DNA from: a phage
Direction: 5' to 3' (one strand)
Assembly: GCA_037574385.1 (NCBI GenBank)
Contig: GCA_037574385.1_4529.1
DNA length: 64,000 bases
The stretch's first letter is position 1. Every line of letters begins with the position of its first letter. The notes beneath the pieces are model-generated. The model worked only from the letters and a program-made list of their open reading frames with translations, was not told where the DNA came from and did not search any database. The translations under genes were made by a program, and so were the position numbers. Shown piece after piece: positions 3,026 through 61,208 of the stretch.

Positions 3026-3043
3026 ACGATAATACCTCTCAAT

Positions 3044-3051
3044 TATAAATA
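3044..3051 (+). promoter_or_regulatory. late promoter TATAAATA upstream of t
   Basis: Exact TATAAATA ~20 nt upstream of the holin ATG; consensus of T4 gp55-dependent late promoters. Confidence 0.6.
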
Positions 3052-3070
3052 TTGATAAATGGGAGGTAAT

Positions 3071-3730
3071 ATGGCAGCACCAAAAGTATCATTTTCGCCT
3101 AGTGATATTTTATTTGGGTTGCTAGACCGCATTTTCAAAGATAACGCCTCTGGAAATATTCTTATTTCCAGAGTTGCTGTTGTAGTTCTTTTGTTCCTAA
3201 TGGCACTAATATGGTACAAAGGGAGTATTTTTATGGATTATTACGTGAGGTCGAAATATGATACTTACACAGAAGTAATTCAAAAAGAAAGAAATACACG
3301 ATTTGAATCTGCGGCTTTAGAACAACTACAAATAGTCCACGTCACATCAAGGGCGGATTTTAGTTCGGTGTATTCTTTCAGACCTAAAAATCTAAATTAT
3401 TTCGTCGACCTTATTGCGTATGAAGGTAAGTTACCTAGCACAGTAACTGAAAAATCTATGGGAGGATTTCCTGTCGATAAAACTACAGCAGAATATTCGG
3501 TCCATTTAAGTGGACTTCACTTTACTTCTAAAACAGATTTTGCTTTCTTACCTACCAAATCAAAAACTCCGGAACTGGCATATATGTATAGTTGTCCTTA
3601 CTTCAATTTGGATAACATATATGCTGGAACTGTTTCTATGTATTGGTATAAGGGGTCGGATGTGTTAAATGAAGAACGCTTGGCAGCAATATGCAACCAA
3701 GCAGCAAGGATATTAGGGCGGGCTAAATAA
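3071..3730 (+). CDS. t: holin T (lysis timing)
   Basis: Starts MAAPKVSFSPSDILFGLLDRIFKDNA, one TM segment, ends ...CNQAARILGRAK; high identity to T4 holin as I recall it. GGGAGG 5 nt upstream of ATG 3071 (track ORF begins at 3059). Confidence 0.9.
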   Translation: MAAPKVSFSPSDILFGLLDRIFKDNASGNILISRVAVVVLLFLMALIWYKGSIFMDYYVRSKYDTYTEVIQKERNTRFESAALEQLQIVHVTSRADFSSVYSFRPKNLNYFVDLIAYEGKLPSTVTEKSMGGFPVDKTTAEYSVHLSGLHFTSKTDFAFLPTKSKTPELAYMYSCPYFNLDNIYAGTVSMYWYKGSDVLNEERLAAICNQAARILGRAK

Positions 3731-13653: not shown

Positions 13654-13854
13654 TCACAAGTTACGTTTAAAAATTTCTGCTACTTCAAGAAGTTCTTCTT
13701 TAGTAGCTGTATCGGTTTGTATTTTATATCGAATTTCTTTAAAGCGTTCTTTAAAGGACTCTGCTGACTCGATATCAAAAAATCTTTGGATAAGCCGGAA
13801 TTCCCGGAGCACTGCTTTATCAAAAAGTTCCAAGTCCACGTTATATGTTCTCAT
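13654..13854 (-). CDS. rIIA.1-like small protein (66 aa)
   Basis: Short ORF immediately upstream of rIIA as in T4. Confidence 0.6.
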   Translation of the reverse strand: MRTYNVDLELFDKAVLREFRLIQRFFDIESAESFKERFKEIRYKIQTDTATKEELLEVAEIFKRNL

Positions 13855-13879
13855 AATATTCTCTTCAGTAGATTCCTAG

Positions 13880-13930
13880 GGCACTATTACTAAAGACCAT
13901 ATAATCTATCATCTTATGTGTAATAGTGCC
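13880..13930 (-). promoter_or_regulatory. 11-bp stem-loop with -10-like element in the loop, between glycosyltransferase gene and rIIA.1
   Basis: GGCACTATTAC ... GTAATAGTGCC perfect inverted repeat; loop contains GATTATAT. Confidence 0.45.
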
Positions 13931-13946
13931 TCAGGCGATTCAGGAT

Positions 13947-18009: not shown

Positions 18010-18263
18010 TAAGTTGTACCATTTTCAGTGATTTCACGGAAGATACCATAGATAGGCATTTCATCACCGAGTTTTTCGTAAACGTAAACCACTTCAGTGT
18101 AGCATAAAAATTCAGTCCAGTTTTTCTGTACAACAACTAAATCAGGATTAAACAGAACATCTTCAAACTCATCGATGTTTGAATCAGTAGTTACGTTTTT
18201 AATGATTTGACGTTTCATAATATTCTCCTCTTGTTTTGATAGGTCTATAGTATCATAGACCAT
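17991..18263 (-). CDS. hypothetical early protein (90 aa)
   Basis: ORF in operon orientation. Confidence 0.5.
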
Positions 18264-18275
18264 AGTTGTTGTACA

Positions 18276-18800
18276 TCATTTTAGCAAAATAAAATCAACT
18301 TGTTCTGCCAATGAACGTCTGAACATTAATTGACAACTTCCGAGGATGAAATCAGGTGCTTCATAGACCGCGATGTAGTATCCTTTAGCTTTCAAGAGTT
18401 CAACATCTACCTGGTCATCAAACCATGCATAAACCGCGTCAACACTTTCAAATCCAAAATAGAACCCTTGAGCCCAATCTTCACTCAATTCAAATGTGTG
18501 CTCAATTCTATAGTATCTTAAGATATTTTGTTCAAGGAGTTTATCTTCATTTACTGTAGGACGATTAGGGACATTATAGTTGTCGCCGTGATGGTAGAAA
18601 TTACCTGAGAGTATTCCATGTTTATCAAGGAACTCCCATGTTTCTTCAGAGTTGTCGGTGCCCGACCAACCGTAAGGTGAGCGAGGTTCTTTATTCCAAG
18701 AGGTTTCCCAAATTCTGACGGCTTTACCGTCTTCGATGGCAATTCCTGGTAATGATTCACGTTGAGTACAAAAACTACGTTCTACGCGGTAAACTAACAT
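18276..18800 (-). CDS. hypothetical early protein (174 aa)
   Basis: ORF preceded by RBS-sequestering hairpin/promoter element. Confidence 0.55.
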   Translation of the reverse strand: MLVYRVERSFCTQRESLPGIAIEDGKAVRIWETSWNKEPRSPYGWSGTDNSEETWEFLDKHGILSGNFYHHGDNYNVPNRPTVNEDKLLEQNILRYYRIEHTFELSEDWAQGFYFGFESVDAVYAWFDDQVDVELLKAKGYYIAVYEAPDFILGSCQLMFRRSLAEQVDFILLK

Positions 18801-18806
18801 ATTATT

Positions 18807-18847
18807 CTCCTCTGGTTGATACGGTTATAATATCAAAACCAGAGGAG
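18807..18847 (-). promoter_or_regulatory. 11-bp stem-loop with -10-like element in loop and Shine-Dalgarno in 3' arm
   Basis: CTCCTCTGGTT ... AACCAGAGGAG perfect inverted repeat; minus-strand 3' arm CAACCAGAGGAG is followed by AATAATATG. Confidence 0.5.
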
Positions 18848-18859
18848 AAGTAAACAACT

Positions 18860-19279
18860 TTATGCGAAAGCAGCCGGGCTATATTTTTTAATTTGGAATT
18901 CAGGAACTACCATGAACTGACCAGCGAAAACGATGTTATAAAGCTTAACACCATCTTCTACCCAACGGTCGCTAATAAATCCGGCGATTTGCTTAGTTTT
19001 CCATGGCGTTCCATCGGTTGCCGCAGCAATAGTGAATTCGTGGTCTTTTTCAACAGAAACTGATCTGCATAGTCCCCATTTGAACGCTTTTTCTTCTGGT
19101 TCAATGAATTGGCTTGAGACGTAGCCAATGTTGCCATCAGCATCACGAACTTTAACTTGATGTGGACTAAAGAGTCCACAACTTACAGAAAGAACTTCAA
19201 CCAACTTCCCAGCAACTTTAGAGCGAGAAGCAACAGATACATATACGTAATCACCAATAGAGAGATTTGCAATATTCAT
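18860..19279 (-). CDS. hypothetical protein, member of a 3-gene tandem paralog family
   Basis: C-terminal region shares ...GFISD.WVEDG.KLYNIVF.G.F.VV... with the next two genes. Confidence 0.6.
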   Translation of the reverse strand: MNIANLSIGDYVYVSVASRSKVAGKLVEVLSVSCGLFSPHQVKVRDADGNIGYVSSQFIEPEEKAFKWGLCRSVSVEKDHEFTIAAATDGTPWKTKQIAGFISDRWVEDGVKLYNIVFAGQFMVVPEFQIKKYSPAAFA

Positions 19280-20362: not shown

Positions 20363-20392
20363 ATTATACTCCAACCATCCTTGGTTGTAAAC
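20363..20392 (-). promoter_or_regulatory. early promoter-hairpin repeat (TTATACTCCAACCATCCTTGGTTGTAAACTG)
   Basis: Minus strand has GTTTACA, ~17-18-nt spacer containing CAACC..GGTTG stem, TATAAT; ~30 nt upstream of the gene start. Confidence 0.55.
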
Positions 20393-30864: not shown

Positions 30865-31074
30865 TTATCGAAAATCAGCTTCAAAAACTTTCTCGTCATT
30901 AATAAATGCTTTAACAAGTGCACTGTTCACTTCGGCGAGTTGTACCGCAACCCACTCGATTTCTTCACGATCACCTGATAACATGATATCTTTAGTGAAC
31001 ATCTCACCACTTTTAAACCAGCCAATAAAAGTAATTTTAGTTAATTTGCTCATATTTCCTCGCAAAATGCCCAT
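30865..31074 (-). CDS. hypothetical protein (69 aa)
   Basis: ORF in operon orientation. Confidence 0.45.
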   Translation of the reverse strand: MGILRGNMSKLTKITFIGWFKSGEMFTKDIMLSGDREEIEWVAVQLAEVNSALVKAFINDEKVFEADFR

Positions 31075-31367
31075 TCAGCGTGATAAACTGTAGCACCTTT
31101 AGTATCGTTCATTTGAACTACGTCTACCGGAGAAATTACTCGATAGAGACGTGGTTCACCTCCATAAGAGCGTGCTGCTCGTCCTGCATAAATCTTTGCT
31201 AAACCGATATCTTCAGTAAAGAATACACGATTCAAGTTTTTCTTACGTCCAGTTTCAGACAGAACTCCTGTTTCTTCAGGAGGACAAAGCATGTTTTCGA
31301 TGTTAGCTGAACTACTTGAACCGTGATAAAAAATCTTAAATTCTGCTTTACAATCGATGGTTTTCAT
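31050..31367 (-). CDS. hypothetical protein (105 aa)
   Basis: ORF preceded by promoter-hairpin element. Confidence 0.5.
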   Translation of the reverse strand: MKTIDCKAEFKIFYHGSSSSANIENMLCPPEETGVLSETGRKKNLNRVFFTEDIGLAKIYAGRAARSYGGEPRLYRVISPVDVVQMNDTKGATVYHAEWAFCEEI

Positions 31368-31373
31368 TTTGTT

Positions 31374-31414
31374 CTCCAGTAGTTGATAGGTCTATAATAA
31401 CACAACTACTGGAG
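31374..31414 (-). promoter_or_regulatory. 12-bp stem-loop with -10-like element in loop and Shine-Dalgarno in 3' arm
   Basis: CTCCAGTAGTTG ... CAACTACTGGAG perfect inverted repeat; minus strand GTTTAC-17 nt-TATTAT; 3' arm ...CTGGAGAACAAAATG. Confidence 0.5.
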
Positions 31415-31422
31415 AAGTAAAC

Positions 31423-31797
31423 TTAAAAACGTAATTTAGATATATCTGCGTTGATTTCGTTTTGGTTTGCGTCGTATGCAATTAAACGAACCGCTTTAGA
31501 TGGGTCATTCAATGCATAGAAATGATGGAACATTGCTCGAACGATATCACCATTTACGAGTTCTACCTGGATAGGAGAACCTTTTTCTAGTTGGAAATGT
31601 TCATAAGCTTTGATGGTTCGCAGATAATCAAGTTTTTGATTTCCGGCTCCAACAATTTGTACGATACGTTTGCCCATGTTTTCCATACGAGATACAATAG
31701 TTTTAGGAGCAAGAATAACGTAGGTTGCCAACGGAGAAACTACTTCAACAGTTGTGTTTTCGGTGATTGCAGTAAAAATTGCTTGAGACATATTCAT
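31423..31797 (-). CDS. hypothetical protein (124 aa)
   Basis: First ORF downstream of 41. Confidence 0.5.
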   Translation of the reverse strand: MNMSQAIFTAITENTTVEVVSPLATYVILAPKTIVSRMENMGKRIVQIVGAGNQKLDYLRTIKAYEHFQLEKGSPIQVELVNGDIVRAMFHHFYALNDPSKAVRLIAYDANQNEINADISKLRF

Positions 31798-31863
31798 AAT
31801 GTTTTCCTCTTGGTTGGTGTAAGTACATCATATCATGCCTAGAGGAAGATGTAAACCCCGAAA

Positions 31864-47456: not shown

Positions 47457-47657
47457 TTATTCGTAGAAGTCGGTAACTGTCCATGCGGAATTGCGATTAG
47501 ACATTATTTTATTATACTCATCTTTAAAAGCAGATTTGAGCATTTGTTCAGTAACAATATGTTCTTCACCTGAAAACGTATTGGTCAAAACATATTTTTT
47601 AATTTCAGGGACAACGAGAAGATGATGTCCGGTTGAATACTCCATGTTGTTCTCCAT
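47457..47657 (-). CDS. 45.2-like small protein (66 aa)
   Basis: Short ORF between 46 and rpbA as in T4. Confidence 0.55.
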   Translation of the reverse strand: MENNMEYSTGHHLLVVPEIKKYVLTNTFSGEEHIVTEQMLKSAFKDEYNKIMSNRNSAWTVTDFYE

Positions 47658-47699
47658 TTAATTTGATGTGGTCATTATAACCACATCGTGTTAAAGCGT

Positions 47700-56214: not shown

Positions 56215-58028
56215 TGGTGTTTAACCCTATGCATGATTTCTTTATTTTTACCGAGATTAAATCCGCGTTCGTTCGGATTTCCCAAATAACCGCACGTTCT
56301 TCTTATTGTGTTCATCTTTTTAGGATCAGTTTCTCCGCAAACTGAACAAACAAATCCGTTTTCAGTAGGAGTCATTTCATGGGTACTTCCGCATGTAAAA
56401 CATTTATCCACTGGCATATTAACACCAAAATAATCTAAATGTTGTGCAGCATAATCCCAGACGGCCTCAAGTCCTTTTAAGTTATTTTTCATATCAGGAA
56501 GTTCAACATAAGAAATGTGACCACCTGTCGCAATGAAATGATATGGCGCTTCACGAGAAATCTTTTCAAACGGAGTAATATTTTCTTCTACTGAAACGTG
56601 GAAACTATTAGTGTACCAGCCTTTATCGGTAACATCTTTTACACTTCCGTATTTTTCTGTATCAAGTTTACAGAAGCGATAACAAAGGTTTTCAGCAGGA
56701 GTCGAATATAAACTAAAAGCAAATCCAGTTCTTTCAGTCCACTGTTTAAGATGAGCATTCATTTTAGTTAAAATTTCTTGCCCAATATCACGACCGACAA
56801 GAATATTCAATTCGTGAATACCAATGTATCCCAAAGACACTGAACTTCTACCGTTTTTAAATAACTCAATTATGTCGTCATCAGGTTTAAGACGAACACC
56901 GAATGCACCTTCTTGGTAAAGAATAGGAGCAACAGTCGCTTTAACTCCTTTTAAGGAACTAATTCTACACATCAAGGCTTCAAAACACAGATCCATTCGT
57001 TCATTGAATAATTCAACAAATTTCTGTTCATTGAACTGTGTTCCAATATAAGAATCTAATGCGATACGAGGAAGATTCAGCGTTACAACACCTAGATTAT
57101 TACGCCCATCAAGAATTTCATTACCGGTTGAATCTTTCCACACACTCAAGAAACTACGGCAACCCATTGGAGAAACTGGAACTGAAGAACCGGTAATAAC
57201 TTTGTTATTCTTAACCGAAATGATGTCAGGATACATTCTTTTGCTTGCACATTCTAAAGCAAGCTGCTTAATATCATAGTTCGGGTCGTCTTTATAAAGA
57301 TTAACACCTTCTTCAATGAACATAACAAGTTTAGGGAAAATAGGAGTTATCCCATCACGTCCAAGACCTTTAATCCGATTTTTCAGAATTGCTTTCTGAA
57401 TCATTCGTTCAGTCCAATCGGTTCCCATGCCAAATGTAATTGTTACAAAAGGCGTTTGTCCATTTGAACTAAAGAGAGTATTTACTTCATATTCATAAGC
57501 TTGGAATGCATCGTATACGTCTTTTTCTGTTTTAGATTGAGCATAATTCAACGCATCAGCGATTTGCCATTTTTCTGCATCTTCAACATGTTTAGCGTAT
57601 GTGCGTTTAACATAAGGAGAAAGAACTTTATCGACATTCGCAAATGTAGTTCCGCCATACTGATGTGAAGCAACTTGTGCGGTAATTTGTGCCATAATTG
57701 CAGTAGCAACACCAATTGATTTAGGCGTTTCAATTTGAGCATTGCCTAATTTAAATCCATTCTCAAGCATCCCCTTTAAATCGACTAAACAGCAATTAGT
57801 AAATGGAAGAGCAGGAGAATAATCAATATCATGCATGTGGATAATTCCACTTTCATGCGCATTCATAATAAAAGACGGGACCATATTTTTGGCAATGTGC
57901 TTAGACACAATACCAGCCATAAGGTCCCGTTGAGTTGGAAAAACACGAGAATCTTTATTAGCATTCTCGTTCAAAAGATCTTTATTAGTTTTATGAATTA
58001 ATCCTTCAATTTCTTTTTCAATTTTCAT
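56211..58028 (-). CDS. nrdD: anaerobic ribonucleoside-triphosphate reductase NrdD
   Basis: 605 aa; C-terminal zinc site (C..C...C..C) and glycyl-radical motif RTCGYLG; uninterrupted (no intron). Confidence 0.95.
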   Translation of the reverse strand: MKIEKEIEGLIHKTNKDLLNENANKDSRVFPTQRDLMAGIVSKHIAKNMVPSFIMNAHESGIIHMHDIDYSPALPFTNCCLVDLKGMLENGFKLGNAQIETPKSIGVATAIMAQITAQVASHQYGGTTFANVDKVLSPYVKRTYAKHVEDAEKWQIADALNYAQSKTEKDVYDAFQAYEYEVNTLFSSNGQTPFVTITFGMGTDWTERMIQKAILKNRIKGLGRDGITPIFPKLVMFIEEGVNLYKDDPNYDIKQLALECASKRMYPDIISVKNNKVITGSSVPVSPMGCRSFLSVWKDSTGNEILDGRNNLGVVTLNLPRIALDSYIGTQFNEQKFVELFNERMDLCFEALMCRISSLKGVKATVAPILYQEGAFGVRLKPDDDIIELFKNGRSSVSLGYIGIHELNILVGRDIGQEILTKMNAHLKQWTERTGFAFSLYSTPAENLCYRFCKLDTEKYGSVKDVTDKGWYTNSFHVSVEENITPFEKISREAPYHFIATGGHISYVELPDMKNNLKGLEAVWDYAAQHLDYFGVNMPVDKCFTCGSTHEMTPTENGFVCSVCGETDPKKMNTIRRTCGYLGNPNERGFNLGKNKEIMHRVKHQ

Positions 58029-58498
58029 TTTAAACTCTTTCTAAGCTGCTTTTTGAATGAAGATATTAATTGTGTTTTAGTATCAGATTCATTATATTCA
58101 AATCCTCTTTGAAGCATCTCAGCCATCATTTCCTCTTTACCTAGTCTTGAGAACTCTTTAGTTTTGTCTGGAACAAAATTAGGATGGATATTATTATCAG
58201 AATAATCTTGTTTCAAATAAGCAAGAAGAGCTTCAAGCCATTCGAGGTAATCAACGTTTTGACCTTTCAAACCGGAACGGTTGAACTTATGCTTCATTTG
58301 ACCTTCTGCTGCGTTGCACAGATTACAGAGTAATCCACGAACTCTACCGGCTTTTGGCCCGTTTAATTCATGGTCGTGGTCAAGATGGTTACCTTGAACA
58401 TCAGAGTCTAATTCACGGCGGCAAATAGGACACTTACCGTTCTGTGCATCATAAAATTTTTGTTTTTCTTCTTTATATTTTGCGCCTGATAATAACAT
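58025..58498 (-). CDS. 49: endonuclease VII (gp49), Holliday-junction resolvase
   Basis: 157 aa; ...KEEKQKFYDAQNGKC.IC.REL..DVQ.NHLDHDHELNGPKAG.VRGLLCNLCNAAEGQMKHKFNRSGLKGQ.VDYLEWLE matches T4 EndoVII. Confidence 0.95.
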   Translation of the reverse strand: MLLSGAKYKEEKQKFYDAQNGKCPICRRELDSDVQGNHLDHDHELNGPKAGRVRGLLCNLCNAAEGQMKHKFNRSGLKGQNVDYLEWLEALLAYLKQDYSDNNIHPNFVPDKTKEFSRLGKEEMMAEMLQRGFEYNESDTKTQLISSFKKQLRKSLK

Positions 58499-58503
58499 GA
58501 TAA

Positions 58504-58535
58504 ACCCTTACCTTAAATAGATAAGGGTATTTATA
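58504..58535 (-). promoter_or_regulatory. late promoter TATAAATA overlapping an RBS-sequestering hairpin upstream of gene 49
   Basis: Minus strand TATAAATA (plus 58528-58535) followed by ACCCTTA...TAAGGGT stem, ~30 nt upstream of ATG. Confidence 0.55.
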
Positions 58536-61174: not shown

Positions 61175-61203
61175 ATTATACTCCAACCATCCTTGGTTGT
61201 AAA
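61175..61203 (-). promoter_or_regulatory. early promoter-hairpin repeat
   Basis: Identical to the 20363-20392 copy (ATTATACTCCAACCATCCTTGGTTGTAAA). Confidence 0.55.
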
Positions 61204-61208
61204 CTGAT

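Follow-up and report, generated by a model that had tools for sequence, protein, structure and literature searches.

The window, the whole 64-kb stretch of phage DNA that was analysed, shares 96–98% identity with RB69-group T4-like phages (Mosigvirus: phiE142, phiC120, Shf125875, and RB69), and its minus strand is the early-gene strand. Two short intergenic regions on this strand each contain an early promoter and a long perfect hairpin (Table 1). A motB-like gene and the ortholog of motB.2 flank site 1; site 2 separates a 124-aa ORF from a 105-aa ORF, which dmd directly follows. Neither MotB.2 nor the 105-aa product gave a Pfam match, and PHROGs labels both as of unknown function. At each site the upstream gene ends against the promoter: the TAA stop of the motB-like gene (18862–18860) leaves a gap of 4 nt to the −35 element, with no terminator in it, and that of the 124-aa ORF (31425–31423) is flush with the −35 element. 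The 124-aa ORF has its own early promoter (31856–31827), placed after the gene 41 terminator. The 105-aa ORF (30865–31367 region, minus strand; 3082–3605 at locus L060) terminates within the start of dmd, and the annotations of Shf125875 and RB69 give this region a 149-aa ORF040c that overlaps dmd, a conflict of frame or stop.

Table 1. Coordinates of the genes and promoter–hairpin features at the two sites.
Feature	Position	Strand	Remarks
Site 1 upstream gene	18860..19279	-	motB-like, RB69ORF010c ortholog
Site 1 -35 GTTTAC	18850..18855	-	T4-type early promoter; RB69 counterpart Pe:7443
Site 1 5' arm TTCTCCTCTGGTT (anti-SD)	18837..18849	-	within promoter spacer, upstream of predicted start
Site 1 extended -10 TGA-TATTAT	18827..18835	-	in hairpin loop; TATTAT 18832-18827
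Site 1 predicted transcription start, A	18820..18820	-	placed by promoter geometry, 7 nt after -10
Site 1 3' arm AACCAGAGGAGAA	18805..18817	-	holds SD; GGAG 18810-18807
Site 1 downstream gene	18276..18800	-	motB.2 ortholog, 174 aa, ATG 18800-18798
Site 2 upstream gene	31423..31797	-	124-aa ORF, RB69ORF041c ortholog
Site 2 -35 GTTTAC	31417..31422	-	RB69 counterpart Pe:20537
Site 2 5' arm TTCTCCAGTAGTTG (anti-SD)	31403..31416	-	within promoter spacer
Site 2 extended -10 TGT-TATTAT	31394..31402	-	in loop; TATTAT 31399-31394
Site 2 predicted transcription start, A of ATCAAC	31387..31387	-	placed by promoter geometry
Site 2 3' arm CAACTACTGGAGAA	31372..31385	-	holds SD; GGAG 31377-31374; ATG 31367-31365
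Site 2 downstream gene	31050..31367	-	105-aa ORF, phrog_2110, RB69ORF040c region, then dmd

Read on the minus strand, site 1 runs GTTTAC, TTCTCCTCTGGTT ttga, TATTAT, aaccgtatc, AACCAGAGGAGAA, taat, ATG, and site 2 runs GTTTAC, TTCTCCAGTAGTTG tgt, TATTAT, agacctat, CAACTACTGGAGAA, caaa, ATG. Both promoters have a GTTTAC −35 element, a 17-nt spacer, and an extended −10 element (TGnTATTAT) followed by a Shine-Dalgarno sequence (SD) and ATG, the arrangement of T4-type early, sigma-70-like promoters. Both were predicted independently in RB69 by an HMM, as Pe:7443 and Pe:20537 (Nolan et al., 2006), and the 434 nt that separate the second of these from its neighbour Pe:20971 in RB69 also separate the window promoters at 31421 and 31855. 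Transcription is predicted to start 7 nt past the −10 element, at about 18820 and 31387, which is 2–3 nt ahead of the 3' arm of the hairpin; in the RB69 early consensus, positions −3 to −1 are C-rich (PMC1524935). A preliminary description of this DNA had placed a −10 element within the loop and a GGAG within the 3' arm, and both placements hold at the two sites, where the loop encloses TATTAT and the GGAG belongs to the SD of the next gene. That description was silent on strand; the functional strand is the minus strand at both sites. A plus-strand reading was rejected, as it offers neither a −35 element at the right distance nor a real downstream ORF on the plus strand.

The inverted repeats described earlier as 11 and 12 bp long do exist, but are longer, forming perfect stems of 13 bp at site 1 (loop of 19 nt) and 14 bp at site 2 (loop of 17 nt). 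These are the two longest perfect stems in the 64 kb among those with loops of up to 30 nt, and dinucleotide shuffles yielded 0.03 stems of at least 13 bp per shuffle. The outer 6 bp (TTCTCC/GGAGAA) are common to both sites, while the inner stems differ, each being compensated. Read-through RNA carrying both arms is predicted to fold at −24.9 kcal/mol at site 1 and −25.0 kcal/mol at site 2 (z = −4.8 and −6.2), whereas RNA begun after the −10 element folds at just −1.4 and 0 kcal/mol, respectively. When the approximately 108 called gene starts of the window were each folded with 80 nt of upstream sequence, the SDs of the two sites ranked first and second in predicted occlusion, with mean unpaired probabilities of 0.01 and 0.02. 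No match to Rfam at the gathering score was found anywhere in the window; the remaining matches, to a pair of miRNA-hairpin models for site 2 and a single snoRNA model for site 1, scored far below threshold and were dismissed as chance. Among the roughly 19 early promoters of the window, strong stems are found at these 2, and 3 others carry an anti-SD of 5–7 nt at the same spacer position. Many other early promoters of the genome have hairpins over the −10 element that do not reach the SD, and therefore hairpins at early promoters may serve a more general role.

Related cassettes and site-1 orthologs were collected through a blastn search of GenBank phages with site 1; a search of IMG/VR with the MotB.2 protein returned just three near-identical loci. 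The blastn search placed the cassette ahead of different genes in other phages, including an unclassified coliphage (stem TTCTCCTCTAGTTG/CAACTAGAGGAGAA) and a Klebsiella phage whose stem contains G:U pairs, and unrelated genes are preceded by the same type of cassette in Dhakavirus and Klebsiella phages. Orthologs of motB.2 in three genera keep the hairpin architecture with differing sequences. The stem is 13 bp in Mosigvirus and 11 bp in Dhakavirus WG01 (TTCTCCTCATG/CATGAGGAGAA; −26.8 kcal/mol, z = −6.2), and in T4 it is a bipartite helix of 8+9 bp (UUCCUCGG-U-UAGUUGUGGU / ACCAUAGCUACUGAGGA; −27.1 kcal/mol, z = −6.5) with an 8-nt loop that holds most of the −10 element TACTAT. Conservation has exceptions. 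In the Mosigvirus phages mogra and SQ17 the site-1 stem has an uncompensated C:A mismatch. The neighbourhood of site 2 varies among phages, and some site-2 orthologs show only weak bipartite pairing, or no anti-SD, and have a terminator instead, so the downstream gene can do without the hairpin. In some relatives (loci L013, L017, and L018 were examined), a −35 element of the site-2 type lies within the loop of an intrinsic terminator hairpin.

Wider sampling came from exact-pattern scans of IMG/VR for GTTTAC-[T/A]TCTCC...GGAGA...ATG, which returned 27 + 75 = 102 distinct sequences. The pairing imposed by the pattern was extended by at least 4 perfect bp in 11 of the 27 and 36 of the 75 (about 45%, where about 0.4% is expected), and the extended stems comprise more than 15 different inner-stem sequences. 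In a fixed-register alignment of the 75 cassettes, where the five pairs that the search pattern itself fixes are uninformative, the covariation score was 0.278, compared with 0.112 ± 0.010 for shuffles (0 of 500 reached 0.278) and 0.05–0.11 for slid controls; 71% of the cells were paired, against 43–46% with slid partners. Internal mismatches in the stems were few in total, with 2 G:U and 4 A:C. A set of 74 distinct promoter-plus-leader sequences, a sample enriched by the search pattern, gave a similar picture: the spacer paired with its own leader over at least 9 bp in 28, where cross-pairing of spacers with the leaders of other promoters gives 4.0. Of the 31 stems of at least 8 bp, 30 had the SD core in the 3' arm, and the distance from SD to ATG in the cassettes is fixed at 4–9 nt. 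The 24 promoters without the anti-SD motif of the pattern at the start of the spacer included 1 long stem, which did not involve the SD. Judged by sequence, both hairpins of the window belong to a widespread family of early-promoter cassettes with strong covariation.

It is probable, on the strength of this architecture, that sites 1 and 2 are T4-type early promoters set within hairpins that mask a ribosome-binding site, and that an RNA would allow or prevent translation of the next gene according to the promoter it came from, because each early promoter sits within the hairpin that would hide the ribosome site of the following gene. The 5' arm, which begins with the anti-SD TTCTCC, fills the otherwise unconstrained spacer between the −35 and −10 elements; the −10 element is left in the loop, and the 3' arm is formed by the SD region of the gene that follows. 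Polymerase arriving from early or middle promoters upstream would transcribe both arms, and on such read-through RNA the helix of 13–14 bp would block binding of the 30S subunit at motB.2 and the 105-aa ORF. A minus-strand scan from the next upstream promoters (20391 and 31855) to the two sites found no terminator-like site, and so read-through RNA is expected across both. RNA begun at the embedded promoter, 2–3 nt before the 3' arm, would lack the 5' arm, so its leader would be unstructured and translatable. Translation of motB.2 and the 105-aa ORF would then come solely from their own early promoters, which would insulate their dosage from read-through and limit their expression to the immediate-early window. 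The mask could leak: the upstream stop codon lies 10 nt from the 5' arm at site 1 and 6 nt at site 2, and a ribosome terminating there could partly open the stem and allow some coupled translation. Time-resolved omics of T4 place MotB.2 as an early RNA and an early protein, and the flanking genes dexA and motB.1 as early RNAs with middle proteins (PMC9697503 supplement); the early-protein class of MotB.2 fits expression from its own promoter, without proving that this promoter is used.

Masks of this general kind are known from T4. In the e, soc, 49, and I-TevI genes, the SD or AUG is held in a helix on the long RNA, and an internal late promoter delays translation (PMC3014915). As in those genes, the SD at sites 1 and 2 is predicted to be sequestered on RNA initiated upstream, and the RNA from the internal promoter would lack the 5' strand of the helix, since the 5' arm lies wholly upstream of the predicted start. 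Masking of the SD on read-through RNA had been put forward in the preliminary description with a few T4 genes as its precedent. The sequence-level tests (geometry, occlusion, covariation, and conservation at motB.2) all fit such a mask, and the mechanism would be of the T4 type, but the promoter class is not. The T4 masks contain an internal late, gp55-type TATAAATA promoter; this element is absent at sites 1 and 2, where the promoter elements are of the early sigma-70 type and the promoter spacer itself is the 5' arm. The timing logic is therefore reversed: the T4 masks delay translation until late, whereas those described here would restrict it to the gene's own early transcripts. The literature searched, whose scope excluded older subscription T4 papers, holds no earlier description of SD masks embedded in early promoters.

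The window also contains hairpins with late promoters, which look different from sites 1 and 2. Upstream of holin t (3071–3730, plus strand), a hairpin at 3033–3068 (TACCTCTCA, loop ATTATAAATATTGATAAA, TGGGAGGTA) has the late promoter TATAAATA in its loop and the SD in its 3' arm (unpaired probability 0.12), a layout of the e/soc type. Upstream of gene 49 (58025–58498, minus strand), the region 58496–58535 contains the late promoter TATAAATA and, directly after it, a hairpin (ACCCTTATC..TAAGGGT) in which the endonuclease VII SD is buried (unpaired probability 0.08); the classical gene 49 mask is conserved here.

The two sites have a second set of relatives among the cassettes of T4-type phages known as PeSLs (promoter-early stem-loops; Arbiol et al., 2010; Comeau et al., 2014), a membership that the preliminary description missed, as it did the match of the masked SDs to the RegB consensus (see below). 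As in PeSLs, a short intergenic cassette combines a strong early promoter with a stable stem-loop and ends in an SD and ATG, and such cassettes are repeated through variable regions where genes are gained and lost by recombination between cassettes. The placement of the stem-loop differs. In the text of the PeSL paper, stem-loops are described between the −35 and −10 elements, overlapping either element, upstream of the −35 element, or just downstream of the −10 element (PMC2839356), whereas the helix of sites 1 and 2 runs from the spacer across the −10 element and the start to an SD about 15 nt beyond the −10 element, a layout absent from that text. The role published for PeSLs is that of a terminator or attenuator, whereas the two sites have no U-tract and, judged by sequence, are best fitted by SD masking. 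Neither PMC2839356 nor PMC4122927 mentions such masking, and the word 'translation' does not occur in PMC4122927.

On the published reading of PeSLs, the hairpins would terminate or attenuate transcription coming from upstream, in cassettes that chiefly serve homologous exchange and so shuffle genes, and inclusion of the SD would be incidental. We regard this as unlikely for sites 1 and 2, although it has experimental precedent, as one RB49 stem-loop reduced expression of a downstream lacZ about as much as rrnB T1 (PMC2839356). Intrinsic terminators likewise place a stable hairpin at the end of the upstream gene, but have loops of 3–8 nt and a U-tract, while the stems here have loops of 17–19 nt, are only moderately GC-rich, and are followed by UAAUAUG (site 1) and CAAAAUG (site 2). 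Neither was called by a local terminator scan or by TransTerm run on RB69, and an intrinsic terminator was rejected on sequence at both. Recombination between cassettes is visible in TH58 and ST2 (loci L165 and L029), which lack motB.2 and have a hybrid cassette made of the 5' half of the motB.2 promoter and the 3' half of the cef promoter; this looks, from sequence comparison, like a PeSL-mediated deletion. The hybrid still pairs over 9 bp. Recombination, however, needs identity rather than intramolecular pairing, and it leaves unexplained both the more than 15 compensated inner stems and the near-constant coincidence of the 3' arm with the SD. The cef promoter of the window (18242–18261, minus strand) has a hairpin that overlaps its −10 element (GGTCTATGATACTATAGACC).

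The distribution of the hairpins can be read in two ways. Strong hairpins sit where an intrinsic terminator is absent: 1 of 27 strong SD-containing stems follows an intrinsic terminator, compared with 14 of 39 weak or absent stems (Fisher p = 0.002, uncorrected for relatedness). This association would equally fit a hairpin that itself stops transcription. The hairpins of other window promoters that do not involve the SD also speak for the terminator reading. In the collected promoters the upstream stop codon typically lies about 10 nt before the 5' arm, so the hairpin appears where the promoter directly abuts the upstream ORF; this placement fits an insulating role, and fits the attenuator view too.

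A further alternative concerns the nuclease RegB, whose strong-site consensus is GG*AGRAYARAA and whose cleavage is blocked by secondary structure and requires an A-rich 3' flank (PMC3014915). The SD of site 2 (GGAGAACAAAA) agrees with GGAGRAYARAA at 11 of 11 positions and is the sole perfect match in the 64-kb window, that of site 1 (GGAGAATAATA) agrees at 10 of 11, and that of T4 motB.2 is GGAUAAUAAAA; regB is annotated in the close relatives RB69 and Shf125875. In sequence, the sites resemble the RegB targets of T4 early mRNAs, with GGAG in an early SD and an A-rich flank. Consensus-like matches are not enriched across the window (11 found, 10.6 expected), and only their placement at early SDs is suggestive. 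In the literature examined, no description was found of a RegB site embedded in a promoter-dependent hairpin. It is conceivable, but improbable, that protection from RegB or another RNase is the main role of the pairing: it would hide the RegB site on polycistronic read-through RNA, so that this RNA survives together with the cistrons further along it (dmd; cef and goF) while short promoter-proximal RNAs are cut, and masking would be a side effect. The perfect and near-perfect matches speak for this, but the window-wide matches are at the level of chance, avoidance of GGAG would be a simpler escape from cleavage, and a shield is compatible with translational masking rather than exclusive of it. 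Under the masking model, exposed SDs on the short RNAs are plausible RegB targets, and paired SDs would be protected; the short RNAs would probably be inactivated fast by RegB, because their exposed SDs match its strong-site consensus, while paired copies are shielded, resulting in a brief pulse of expression.

A role at the level of DNA, whether as a cruciform or single-strand hairpin that modulates the promoter, in replication, recombination, or packaging, or as the site of a dimeric protein, is very unlikely, since loops of 14–27 nt are unfavourable for cruciform extrusion, inner stems that vary between sites would be unreadable for a sequence-specific dimeric protein, and the coincidence of the 3' arm with the SD, at its fixed distance from ATG, would go unexplained. 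What favours it is that the stems are nearly all Watson–Crick paired (few G:U pairs, though these are present in T4 motB.2, the Klebsiella phage cassette, and one IMG/VR cassette), that the −10 element is invariably in the loop, and that PeSL stem-loops are reported to block sequencing polymerases on a single-stranded template (PMC2839356). All three alternatives are less likely than translational masking, and the first two could coexist with it.

Early regions of T4-type phages have dense strong promoters and few terminators, so most early genes lie on several overlapping transcripts. To our knowledge, it is poorly understood how individual small early genes keep their expression separate. 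Several of them encode host-takeover or anti-defence factors, and dmd is located directly downstream of site 2. An anti-SD encoded in the promoter spacer would be a compact and portable form of insulation: it would couple translation of a gene to that gene's promoter and, with RegB acting alongside, to the first minutes of infection. In that case a part of the PeSL cassettes would be re-read as translational insulators instead of terminators. More speculatively, the Tevenvirinae as a group might use modular, self-insulating early cassettes, in which a spacer anti-SD is tailored by compensatory evolution to the SD of the same cassette, the ORF downstream of any place where recombination inserts the cassette is translated solely from its own promoter, and pairing shields a consensus RegB site on read-through RNA, the whole acting as a pulse generator whose RNA is translated once and then cleaved; many PeSL stem-loops would then be switches of translation and RNase access, not terminators. 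As T4 motB.2 shares the architecture, the idea is directly testable in the best-developed phage genetic system, and the anti-SD spacer design is a usable part for synthetic operons.

Several other hairpins and promoters of the window may be recorded. An identical early promoter of about 34 nt (CAGTTTACAACCAAGGATGGTTGGAGTATAAT) occurs twice on the minus strand, at 20363–20392 and 61175–61204, 41 kb apart and ahead of unrelated genes, and both copies have a hairpin (CAACCA/TGGTTG) within the spacer. The early promoter at 31827–31856 (minus strand), which follows the gene 41 terminator, has an anti-SD of 7 nt, TTCCTCT, matching the promoter's own SD, AGAGGAA, across a loop of about 33 nt, with no significant fold. 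Between a 366-aa ORF and rIIA.1 (13654–13854), an inverted repeat at 13875–13935 (minus strand) has 16-nt arms that are 88% complementary, with 11 perfect bp and a 29-nt loop; it leaves the SD uncovered and has no obvious promoter. Inside the holin t coding sequence (3148–3173, plus strand), a stem of 11 perfect bp closes a 4-nt loop (CTCTGGAAATA-TTCT-TATTTCCAGAG) and is among the four longest perfect hairpins of the window. Finally, upstream of the ORF at 47457–47645, the region 47665–47697 (minus strand) has TATAAT 12 nt after a MotA-box-like GCTTTA, with the −10 element enclosed by an 8-bp hairpin (GATGTGGT/ACCACATC), a middle-promoter analogue of the cassette ('PmSL') whose SD (GGAGAACAACA) has one mismatch to the RegB consensus.
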